Positions 8,686 through 10,491 of a stretch of 46,453 bases of DNA are shown here, one piece after another. The position numbers were made by a program, and so were the translations under genes. This DNA comes from Verrucomicrobiia bacterium (GTDB lineage: Bacteria > Patescibacteriota > UBA1384 > CAILIB01): positions 1 to 46,453 of the forward strand of contig DATHWI010000120.1 in assembly GCA_035460805.1 (NCBI GenBank), given 5' to 3'. Numbering within the stretch: the stretch's first letter is position 1; every line of letters begins with the position of its first letter. The notes beneath the pieces are model-generated. The model did no database searches and was not told where the DNA came from. It was given only the letters and a program-made list of their open reading frames with translations.

Positions 8686-10491
8686 TCAGGCTCCTTGCAC
8701 CTTCTCCTGCGGTTGTTCCTTGGCTTTTGGCCAAGAAGTAATGGTCGGTCCCCACGCCTCATTTGCGTCCACCACATTTACCGATTGGACGAACTCGATG
8801 GCGAGGATGGCAACGGTTGAGAACTCGTAACGGGCTATGAGGTCCGGCAAAACTTGCTTGAGGTTACCCAAGCACGCTTCCCCGCTCTCTTGCACGTGAG
8901 GGGCATTCATCTTGGGTAGGTAGGCATCCACACGACGGGTCGTATTGAACCACCGGACCAGGCCTGAAAGCTGAATCTCGATCTTGAATTCACCAATTTC
9001 GTACACAATGTCGGTACGAGGATCGGTGCAGAACAGCGTGTTGGTATACACGAAGATCCTATCTTGAAGGGATTCCACGCGGCGGACCTGAGGAATACTG
9101 AGGAGGTTGTTAAACTCCTTGGCAAAGTACGTTGCGGTTTCGGATTCGGTTACCCTCATCCCCTGCAACTTGCCATGTTCAAGGTCAAGCTTGCGAATGG
9201 CATCCACCAGTTGGCTTTGCAAGCTTTTGACTTGGTCATCCAACTGGTTTACTACCCTCTCTCCCTTGTCGATTTCCCCCTTGCGCCCCGCCATGCAGCG
9301 GGTAATGTAGCCCTCGCGGTCACGCTCCAGAAAGGCGGCGTCGCGCTCCTTGGGTGTCATTTTCAGAAGCTTTGCGGCTTCCTGGAATGTTCGCTCCAAG
9401 ATCTTCGCCTCGTTCGTGCCGCCCTCGTATGACGCGTTGTGGTGGACGTAGAGGATTCTCTCTTCCACCAACTCGCCAACAGCCCAACCAGTCTCCTGGT
9501 CGGTAATGGCGAGTCCGCGCCCAGAGGGCAGGAATGCGTTGTTGCGATGCGTAACCCCAAATCCCCACATCCGGTTAGGTGCCTGGTTGGACGCCCCTTC
9601 TTGAGGTGACCCCCAGAGCACAACGTGGAACAGGCTGTCTTCCTCGGGGTAGTACGTTTCCGCACGCCTCCCATGAAGGACAATATCCCTTTTGGTGAAG
9701 GGTGCTAGGTGCTCACGAAGCTGCGTGATCACCCTGTCGCTGTTCGTCTCCGATCTCCAGATAGACGCCGTGATGGACTGGTAGCCCACCTGCTTCTTGA
9801 GCGCGGCGTCACTGAGCTTTCGCAACAGCAATACCTGGTCCAAAATCTGCTTGAAGATCCGGGCCTCTCGGACCGAACCGCTGTAAGCCAGGTTATGGAA
9901 GATGTAGAGGTCGTTTTTGCCTACCAACTCCGCCACTGGCCAGCCTGAGTTAGGCTCCAGGATTACCACGCCCGTTTTACTGGGCGGGAAGGGGAACCGT
10001 TGGTAGTCGACTTCGTCGCCCCAGAGCGTCCGGGGCGTTGTCTTACCTTCTAGGTATCTCCCCCTGGGGGCAGACCAAAGGTAAATGTTGAGCCGACTCT
10101 TCTCCTTGATGGGTGCTTGCGCGTTCCCTTCTAGGTCTCGGATCGTCACGTTCACCTTAAGCTCAGGCAGAAGCCCTTTCAGCACGCGAACCAGAGGTTC
10201 GCCCACTGAGCCTCCAAGGCCTGCAAGTTGAATGTCGTACGGGGAGTTTTCGGGCTTTTGGCCTGCAGCCTCCGGTTCAAGCGTTACGTTCATCACACCA
10301 TCCCATGTTGTTGCTTTTCTTCTCTCCTCGACTTCGCGGAGACCCAGAAGCGCAAGCGCCTGTGGGTACACCCCTTCGTCTACTAAGATCCCTTTTTCAC
10401 CATCAAGGTCGAGGTCGCACCAATTAAGGCCGGCCATGTCGAGCTTTTCTCGTTGATCCCCGGTCATACCGGGAAGAAAGTAATTGAGCAT
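8686..10491 (-). CDS. 601-aa protein: two ~130-aa tandem repeats, a coiled coil and a C-terminal E2/UBC-like domain with a candidate catalytic Cys
   Basis: The ATG has GAGGA upstream. The C-terminal FKIEIQL..VRWFNTT..NAPHVQESGEACLGNLKQVLPDLI mirrors the E2 core (F-x-L-x-I..V-x-F-x-T..HPN-x3-4-G-x-I-C-L-D-I-L). The internal duplication is visible by eye. The CDS is confident; the E2 call has moderate confidence. Confidence 0.85.
   Translation of the reverse strand: MLNYFLPGMTGDQREKLDMAGLNWCDLDLDGEKGILVDEGVYPQALALLGLREVEERRKATTWDGVMNVTLEPEAAGQKPENSPYDIQLAGLGGSVGEPLVRVLKGLLPELKVNVTIRDLEGNAQAPIKEKSRLNIYLWSAPRGRYLEGKTTPRTLWGDEVDYQRFPFPPSKTGVVILEPNSGWPVAELVGKNDLYIFHNLAYSGSVREARIFKQILDQVLLLRKLSDAALKKQVGYQSITASIWRSETNSDRVITQLREHLAPFTKRDIVLHGRRAETYYPEEDSLFHVVLWGSPQEGASNQAPNRMWGFGVTHRNNAFLPSGRGLAITDQETGWAVGELVEERILYVHHNASYEGGTNEAKILERTFQEAAKLLKMTPKERDAAFLERDREGYITRCMAGRKGEIDKGERVVNQLDDQVKSLQSQLVDAIRKLDLEHGKLQGMRVTESETATYFAKEFNNLLSIPQVRRVESLQDRIFVYTNTLFCTDPRTDIVYEIGEFKIEIQLSGLVRWFNTTRRVDAYLPKMNAPHVQESGEACLGNLKQVLPDLIARYEFSTVAILAIEFVQSVNVVDANEAWGPTITSWPKAKEQPQEKVQGA

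Follow-up and report, generated by a model that had tools for sequence, protein, structure and literature searches.

This locus raises the question of why a bacterial protein should carry a domain resembling ubiquitin-conjugating enzymes (E2) at its C-terminal end, behind a long N-terminal region with an internal duplication. The gene, here termed E2L, lies on the reverse strand of contig DATHWI010000120.1, and the whole stretch of 46,453 nt is referred to as the window. We propose, with a probability of roughly 0.6, that E2L is the E2-type conjugating enzyme of a self-contained operon that would tag proteins with a ubiquitin-like protein (Ubl), and that its N-terminal modules would serve as a built-in adaptor.

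The C-terminal domain of E2L

The gene and its parts, all on the reverse strand (-), are as follows.

8686..10491 (-): E2L gene, an open reading frame of 601 amino acids with the order N domain, repeat copy 1 (R1), repeat copy 2 (R2), coiled coil, E2-like domain
10267..10491 (-): N domain, residues 1-75, a conserved module with a predicted local distance difference test score (pLDDT) above 90 in the AlphaFold2 model
9784..10233 (-): R1, residues ~87-236, delimited by BLASTP, shuffles and profile-profile comparison
9358..9783 (-): R2, residues ~237-378, delimited in the same way
9154..9354 (-): long heptad-patterned helix and probable coiled coil, residues 380-446, from the AlphaFold2 model, a heptad test and the translation
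8704..9153 (-): E2/UBC-like domain with a predicted catalytic role, residues 447-596, from hhalign against canonical E2s
8896-8898 (-) and 8872-8874 (-): checked codons of His532 and Cys540

The coordinates and peptides quoted in an initial annotation of this gene agree with the translation of window positions 10491..8686 (-). An AGGA sequence resembling a Shine-Dalgarno motif lies 7 nt 5' of the ATG at 10491, and the consensus start of E2L homologs is MxNYFL, as in the window protein. Because both favor this upstream ATG, the public gene call (P0001; 593 amino acids starting at Met9, which affects window positions 10467-10491) is probably too short by one beta-strand, and translation probably begins at ATG 10491 to give 601 amino acids. 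A single-sequence AlphaFold model was uninformative (pLDDT 36); the AlphaFold2 model built on 36 homologs had a mean pLDDT of 88.4. In the latter, a small beta-alpha-beta-beta-alpha-beta domain (residues 1-75) is followed by two alpha/beta repeat domains (about residues 87-236 and 237-378), a 67-residue helix (380-446) and a second helix (449-464). The chain then enters a beta-meander (469-516) and a long loop holding Pro531-His532 and Cys540, and ends with helices 544-553 and 557-568. From helix 449-464 onward, this succession of elements is compatible with the UBC fold, in which an N-terminal helix and an antiparallel beta-meander precede the crossover helices.

We compared the C-terminal domain by hhalign with a template of eight canonical E2 sequences. 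The probability was 61%. When the query profile was built from 150 sequences and extended to the preceding helix, it rose to 80.8% (E=1.3e-5), and the 110 aligned columns spanned alpha1 to alpha3 of the UBC core. The reversed template scored 0.3%, and 20 column-shuffled templates scored at most 1.4%. In the alignment, APHVxxxGxAC(540)LGN of E2L falls on HPNVxxxGxIC(85)LDIL, which places Cys540 on the catalytic Cys85 of UBE2D2 and His532 on the Asn of HPN. The catalytic cysteine of UBC/E2 domains is found about 8 to 10 residues past an HPN-type motif, and Cys540 has this spacing (P531-H532-x7-C540). Of the 141 single-domain family members, 140 have Cys540 and 140 have His532; Pro531, Asn516 and Gly500 are invariant, and the motif reads H-P-H in 20 of the 141. 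With hhalign probabilities between 61 and 81%, clean controls and a near-invariant Cys540, the E2-like C-terminal domain of the initial annotation was accepted. On the motif, the profile alignment, the predicted topology and the genes that accompany it, which encode an E1 (activating enzyme), a Ubl and a JAB peptidase, we classify the domain as E2-like with moderate to good confidence.

The operon and its conservation

Downstream of E2L, the following features lie on the same strand.

7866..8684 (-): JAB/JAMM metallopeptidase, 272 amino acids, with E53...H119-S-H121-x7-S129-x2-D132; start from start site analysis
7184..7873 (-): minimal single-domain E1 of the ThiF/MoeB type, 229 amino acids, with Cys175 (Pfam ThiF, 3e-19)
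6950..7180 (-): ubiquitin-like, ThiS-like beta-grasp protein (Ubl), 76 amino acids, ending in ...KVKGN (Pfam ThiS, 6.5e-5)
6900..6925 (-): hairpin resembling an intrinsic terminator, an 11-bp GC-rich stem followed by TTTTTT, which closes the operon
5476..6264 (-): TrmB-family helix-turn-helix regulator (Pfam TrmB, 9e-16)

The likely ATG of the JAB gene (8684) lies one base past the E2L stop codon, the E1 gene overlaps the JAB gene by 8 nt, and the Ubl gene starts 3 nt past the E1 stop codon. By its layout, the series E2L, JAB, E1, Ubl and terminator is a compact operon headed by E2L. The JAMM metal-site pattern (E ... H-x-H-x7-S-x2-D) is present in the JAB protein, and E53, H119, H121, S129 and D132 are invariant in nine JAB orthologs. 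The protein had no match in Pfam, NCBIfam, PADLOC or PHROGs, nor among PDB sequences by profile. In the E1, the ThiF domain covers residues 18-203, Cys175 occupies the position of the crossover-loop cysteine of ThiF/MoeB, and GxGATGS and ACG(C175) are invariant among orthologs. Its best PDB-sequence match is MoeB (E 1.4e-4); the nearest solved relatives by sequence are MoeB and PaaA, an enzyme of ribosomally synthesized and posttranslationally modified peptide (RiPP) pathways, both weakly related. A Rossmann region of ~65 residues also matches the PADLOC "E1-E2" and NCBIfam 6A-MBL cap2 models. The Ubl passes the Pfam ThiS cutoff narrowly (23.8 versus 22.5 bits) and has orthologs in the same operon position. 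Because the JAMM residues, Cys175 and the E1 motifs are conserved, all four products look functional. The tie of E2L to its cognate E1 and Ubl is one of genomic linkage.

A pattern scan of species-representative genomes yielded nine loci: four in Saccharibacteria and one each in Paceibacterota, Thermoanaerobaculia, Obscuribacterales, a metagenome-assembled genome labeled Flavobacteriaceae and an unclassified genome. E2L, JAB and E1 occur in that order in all nine, and a Ubl open reading frame was detected in eight. An E1-seeded scan of metagenomes added at least 449 confirmed loci. We defined complete loci as those from the genome and metagenome scans with at least 4 kb upstream and at least 1.5 kb downstream of E1 (n=34); 33 of them hold all four components. 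Mean pairwise identity across phyla fell from 65% (E1) through 57% (E2-like domain), 45% (JAB), 36% (linker) and 30% (N) to 27% in R, which thus has the lowest conservation in the operon. TrmB homologs are found within 8 kb of the operon in five of the nine genome loci, and control of the operon by the TrmB regulator is possible; the link is weak because TrmB-like genes are frequent in these genomes. A second TrmB-family helix-turn-helix regulator lies near the operon in the window (3105-3851, -).

Thirteen of the 34 complete loci encode two E2-like paralogs, often one N-R-R-C and one N-C protein (C denoting the E2-like domain); two-paralog loci include L012, L015, L025, L029, L031, L038, L044 and L056, and tandem C-C proteins occur in L009 and L033. 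The short N-C partner, like the second domain of the tandem proteins, often lacks His532, Cys540 or both: APH..G..C is kept in 14 of 14 two-repeat forms versus 2 of 7 N-C partners. The N domain is present in both paralogs of two-E2 operons, and R is absent from the short one. On this comparison, the pairs recall an active E2 with an inactive partner of the ubiquitin E2 variant (UEV) kind.

In about 75 related loci (L001-L090), nearly every Ubl unit ends in [K/R]-G-N, and the Asn codon is usually the last before the stop; the exceptions are a few units with 1-3 extra residues and rare GA or SN ends. The mature end may be either the Gly, with Asn as a conserved P1' residue or cap for JAB, or the Asn itself. 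Eight of the 36 Ubl genes in complete loci encode 2-4 head-to-tail units, each ending in KGN (L032:7769-8599, L069:1956-2624, L041:731-1147, L028:8199-8621, and genes in L074, L076 and L082). Read from sequence, this is a polyubiquitin-like precursor arrangement, and it points to the Ubl being a protein modifier rather than a sulfur carrier.

ATPases accompany some of these operons. A double AAA+ ATPase of the ClpB/ClpC type (Pfam AAA, AAA_lid_9, AAA_2 and ClpB_D2-small) lies near the operon on the same strand in seven loci (L038:7807-10080, L025:7793-10141, L029:7763-10102, L017:2376-4670, and in L062, L036 and L028), and directly after E1 in the four closest cases. In five loci, the Ubl gene is followed directly by one for an SMC/SbcC/Rad50-like ATPase that has a CxxC hook (L079:1950-4271, L072:7911-10232, L067:2476-4839, L084:7359-9722 and L085:7960-10338), in some with extra JAB and Ubl genes beyond it. 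The protein encoded at L081:7697-9628 combines, in one chain, a Ubl whose end reads ...IQGN with a helical region and an ATPase domain of the AAA family (Pfam AAA, 1.8e-34). These neighbors suggest that at least some subfamilies may supply an unfoldase or operate together with a DNA-associated ATPase. In L009, the same helical domain of ~170 amino acids follows Ubl-Gly-Asn in one gene (10986-11726) and the N domain in the next (11811-12644); therefore, Ubl and N domain would be alternative heads on one module. A homologous protein with the N domain and the same helical region is encoded at L033:9345-10067.

The repeats and the E2L family

The initial annotation had read, by eye, a tandem duplication in the N-terminal region, and the duplication is real, with residues ~93-237 and ~237-388 as the paralogous segments. 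BLASTP of residues 80-240 against 241-400 gave 66.2 bits (28% identity over 130 amino acids), whereas 300 shuffles of repeat 2 gave a mean of 13.6 (standard deviation 2.3, maximum 23.9), equivalent to z=22.6. R1 and R2 do not resemble the rest of E2L (at most 16 bits). When profiles of the upstream and downstream copies of 39 two-copy homologs were compared, the probability was 100% (E=4e-45, 134 columns). The best match of the window R1 is the R1 of the nearest homolog, P0002 (97 bits, versus 66 bits for its own R2), and that of the window R2 is the single copy of a one-repeat protein, P0118 (99 bits). Nearly every R copy across the family likewise finds its best match in another protein and not in its own chain. 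Because R copies match copies in other proteins better than their own partner, the duplication is, as judged by these comparisons, old and family-wide, not specific to the window gene.

The heptad-like segment described after the repeats corresponds to the AlphaFold2 helix 380-446. Hydrophobic residues occupy its a/d positions at a fraction of 0.68 versus 0.44+-0.05 in shuffles (p~0.001), and in nearly all homologs 61-88 amino acids separate the last repeat from the E2-like domain. It is reasonable to infer that E2L may dimerize through this ~67-residue helix.

The region that holds the repeats belongs to no known family found here; given also the significant self-similarity, neither outcome that the initial annotation had named as refuting its reading came about. 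E2L matched nothing in Pfam, NCBIfam, PADLOC or PHROGs, a PDB-sequence search with the full protein returned nothing significant, and Foldseek with the whole model against PDB gave no match below E=0.03. Foldseek matches to class-I glutamine-amidotransferase-like proteins (E 0.04-0.05; root mean square deviation, 8-20 A) and to ACT, PII and ring-building-motif proteins (E about 0.1-0.6, probably on the N domain) were too weak to use. The sole structural match below E=1e-3 was BFVD A0A6J5NL39, a 1146-residue protein of an uncultured Caudovirales phage (E 9.6e-5, 260 columns). R itself has no invariant polar residues, no Pfam match and no PDB-sequence match by profile. The idea of R as a degenerate E2, UEV or RWD-like domain was rejected (hhalign 0.2% against the C-terminal domain and 0.9% against canonical E2s).

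A word-indexed homolog search returned the query itself, and P0151 and P0152 were added with a profile of the C-terminal domain. Such a search was useless for so divergent a family, so an exhaustive HMMER scan was needed. It recovered 1,613 representative clusters (50% identity) at E<=1e-3, 281 of them at E<=1e-30. All of the ten clusters looked up were metagenome-derived; nine were unnamed and one was called "hypothetical protein". In our searches the family was found solely in metagenomes and uncultured bacteria. An origin from mobile elements found no sequence support: cultured phages and plasmids gave no E2L match, nor did one pattern scan of IMG/VR with a six-sequence alignment of the C-terminal domain.

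Domains were mapped on the 150 best hits of the HMMER scan. The ground plan is an N domain, R repeated a variable number of times (0-5 copies in the family), a helical linker and the E2-like domain. The commonest form is N-R-C (72), followed by N-R-R-C, the window type (37), and R-C (21); forms with three, four and five repeats also occur, and nine proteins have two tandem C-terminal domains. The N domain, a separate conserved domain in the first ~75 residues that the initial annotation had missed, is a module present in 125 of the 150, and it recurs in short N-C paralogs and in separate N-plus-helical proteins. Saccharibacteria have a different N-terminal part of ~210 residues, for which comparison with the R or N domain gave 4.8% and 2.7%. 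A few family members start with a transmembrane helix. None of the E2L homologs among the 150 hits was fused to JAB, E1 or Ubl. One family member, P0137, carries an N-terminal extension with a repeated VGDxVRVI-type motif.

Proposed mechanism, alternatives and known systems

We propose the following sequence of events for the operon. The JAB peptidase would process the precursor, whether Ubl or poly-Ubl, by trimming at the conserved Gly-Asn terminus. The minimal ThiF-type E1 would then adenylate the Ubl C-terminus and probably carry the Ubl on Cys175, from which it would pass to Cys540 in the UBC-like domain of E2L and then to a target. No E3 is encoded, so the N domain and the two R copies would act as an adaptor within E2L itself, and the ~67-residue helix would keep them at a fixed distance. 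The N domain would be the docking module common to all E2-like paralogs, and the fast-evolving, copy-variable R domains would select the target or sense a signal. The purpose of such tagging may be antiviral defense or, alternatively, protein quality control or remodeling.

Several observations weigh against this proposal. None of the curated E2 models (Pfam UQ_con, Prok-E2_A-E) was matched by E2L or by 35 isolated C-terminal domains, even at E<=10. No E2 was among the 50 best PDB matches of Foldseek, which was run with the whole 601-residue chain. A C-terminal-domain profile likewise found no match among PDB chain sequences. Because searches of HMMs against sequences find no E2 family, the E2 homology rests on the profile-profile alignment, the motif and the gene context. 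In addition, the conserved terminal Asn of the Ubl does not fit a plain scheme of Gly activation, and the window contains no recognized defense gene and no defense-island context.

Of the interpretation in the initial annotation, the E2-like end, the heptad helix and the duplicated unknown domain stood; the role in substrate or signal recognition that it expected for the repeats is consistent with our data and may apply. In line with it, R varies from 0 to 5 copies between homologs, has the lowest conservation and is missing from the short paralog, being confined to the partner with intact catalytic residues. The same pattern would fit a regulatory module equally well, and we give modest weight to R as a target adaptor.

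An alternative keeps the same catalysis and makes R a docking site for components of the system itself (E1, Ubl or poly-Ubl, JAB), or an autoinhibitory or sensor module that turns the E2 on, with target choice elsewhere, for example in the E2-like domain. Some other surface must join E1 and E2, since the E1 is a bare 229-residue adenylation domain with neither a ubiquitin-fold nor another E2-docking domain. Moreover, within the family, proteins with several R copies are found together with poly-Ubl of 2-4 units, and for Bil the published work proposes that the E2 recognizes targets directly. However, R is missing from many putatively active members (the Saccharibacteria forms and forms with the C-terminal domain alone that retain APH..G..C), which makes obligatory docking of E1 or Ubl by R unlikely, and its conservation is low (27%) compared with that of its supposed partner E1 (65%). 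Since both paralogs of two-E2 operons retain the N domain, and a separate helical protein also carries it, this domain is the better candidate for docking. We regard this alternative as unlikely.

A second alternative dispenses with protein conjugation. The E1 would activate the C-terminal Asn, as in MccB, which adenylates a C-terminal Asn, or would make a thiocarboxylate, as for ThiS/MoaD, and the Cys540 domain would act as a transferase or peptidase in a RiPP-type or small-molecule pathway. The nearly invariant Gly-Asn end, in place of Gly-Gly, suits this view, as do the weak ties of the E1 to MoeB and the RiPP enzyme PaaA. On the other hand, the alignment of the C-terminal domain to UBC E2s spans the whole core and puts the Cys in register, head-to-tail poly-Ubl genes and inactive UEV-like partner domains are hallmarks of protein modifiers, and the operon lacks rhodanese, cysteine synthase, thiamine and molybdopterin genes as well as a peptide-clamp domain. 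We consider an E2L of this kind quite improbable. Finally, no observation spoke for the notion that the duplication is a chance or compositional artifact, or that the E2L open reading frame is not a real gene; it is refuted by the shuffles (z=22.6), the profile-profile probability of 100%, the 1,613 homologous clusters, the high-confidence model and the conserved operon.

The preferred reading, E2L as the conjugating enzyme of a Ubl-tagging operon, invites comparison with known systems. The antiphage system Bil (BilABCD, types I and II) has the same four parts (Ubl, E2, JAB and E1), and neither system encodes an E3; in Bil, the JAB is expected to preprocess the Ubl, with target finding ascribed to the E2 itself. 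The E1 of Bil is a multidomain IAD-AAD-CYS protein, whereas that of the window is a single ThiF-like domain, and the gene order is E2-JAB-E1-Ubl in the window versus Ubl-E2-DUB-E1 in Bil. Bil E2s are small, in contrast to E2L with its N, R-repeat and coiled-coil modules, and the C-terminal-domain profile detected no sequence relation to the solved bacterial E2s among PDB chains. The Ubl of the window family also differs from that of Bil in its Gly-Asn end and in often being a head-to-tail polymer.

Type II CBASS (systems for antiphage signaling based on cyclic oligonucleotides; Cap2/Cap3) and 6A-MBL share the bacterial E1, E2 and JAB chemistry. There, one fusion protein combines E2 with E1, and the C-terminus of the CD-NTase serves as the "Ubl", whereas E1 and E2 are separate proteins in the window; membership was rejected, as the window and the related loci hold no CD-NTase, effector or MBL gene and no E1-E2 fusion. 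Bub (6E/DUF6527) resembles the window operon in combining Ubl, E1 and E2 genes, with 1-3 beta-grasp Ubls and diverse added domains. However, it works through Ser/Tyr oxyesters, carries a DUF6527 serine protease and has an E2/E1 pair without catalytic Cys; since no DUF6527 match was found and both enzymes of the window operon, E1 and E2L, have a near-invariant Cys, Bub was ruled out. A ThiS/MoaD sulfur-carrier operon was also rejected, given the Gly-Asn end, the poly-Ubl genes and the absence of biosynthetic neighbors.

In the core alignment, E2L has in common with eukaryotic UBC E2s a motif resembling HPN, (A/H)-P-H, and, at the catalytic Cys, the sequence G-x-(A/I)-C-L. It differs from them by a His in place of the HPN Asn, by the lack of HMM-level similarity and by N-terminal modules unlike any eukaryotic E2 extension. 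The degenerate E2-like partners, in cis or in trans, resemble UEVs, and the poly-Ubl genes resemble polyubiquitin with a capping residue; yeast UBI4 has an additional terminal Asn.

None of the operon classes 4a-6e of Iyer et al. (2006) matches the window operon, and a 2024 paper and a 2026 review give CBASS, Bil, Bub and 6A-MBL as the bacterial systems. We found no prior description of the E2L family in the literature on bacterial Ubl systems, a provisional result as the searches were incomplete.

Around the operon, the window encodes an AhpD-like protein, a 731-residue FAD/NAD-binding protein, a coiled-coil protein, an alpha/beta hydrolase and coenzyme A biosynthesis genes, besides the two TrmB-type regulators. 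The 731-residue protein (11651-13846, +) has two similar N-terminal segments (...DDGDAEDFKV... and ...ADETTDFFSV...) and, at residues 354-530, a region of the Rossmann type for FAD/NAD(P) binding. Several of the large open reading frames checked had no Pfam match, and no tRNA, Rfam family or tandem repeat was found in window positions 1-46453. The contig is also deposited as JBGGMR010000069.1 in NCBI GCA_041287945.1.

To date, bacterial Ubl conjugation has been elucidated in three groups of operons, namely CBASS Cap2, Bil and Bub, and the published sets comprise 162 Bil and 544 Bub operons. Provisionally, the operon described here is a variant of such systems that is distinct from all three and as yet apparently undescribed. 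The family is much larger than the published sets, at 1,613 clusters and at least 449 E1 metagenome loci, and it occurs in small-genome uncultured bacteria. Its main interest lies in this large unannotated Ubl-conjugation family, with a conserved four-gene operon that the initial annotation had missed, more than in the single window protein. Features usually called eukaryotic are present in it: poly-Ubl precursors, pairs of an active E2 and an inactive E2-like protein, and associations with AAA+ unfoldases. The duplicated R domain offers a handle on target choice in a system without an E3, and its copy number of 0-5, together with the paralog pairs, provides natural experiments.

More tentatively, and with doubt outweighing confidence, the family may represent a major undescribed class of bacterial Ubl systems, abundant in uncultured lineages, including the candidate phyla radiation. 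It would be characterized by polyubiquitin-style precursors, a Gly-Asn end, a minimal E1, a modular E2 acting as its own E3 and frequent UEV-like partners. In some of its members it would be wired to AAA+ unfoldases of the ClpB/ClpC type or resembling proteasome ATPases, and the R array would read out the target. If this is true, the family would provide a bacterial analogue of ubiquitin-directed unfolding or degradation, and the conserved terminal Asn might indicate a conjugation chemistry other than activation of a Gly carboxylate.

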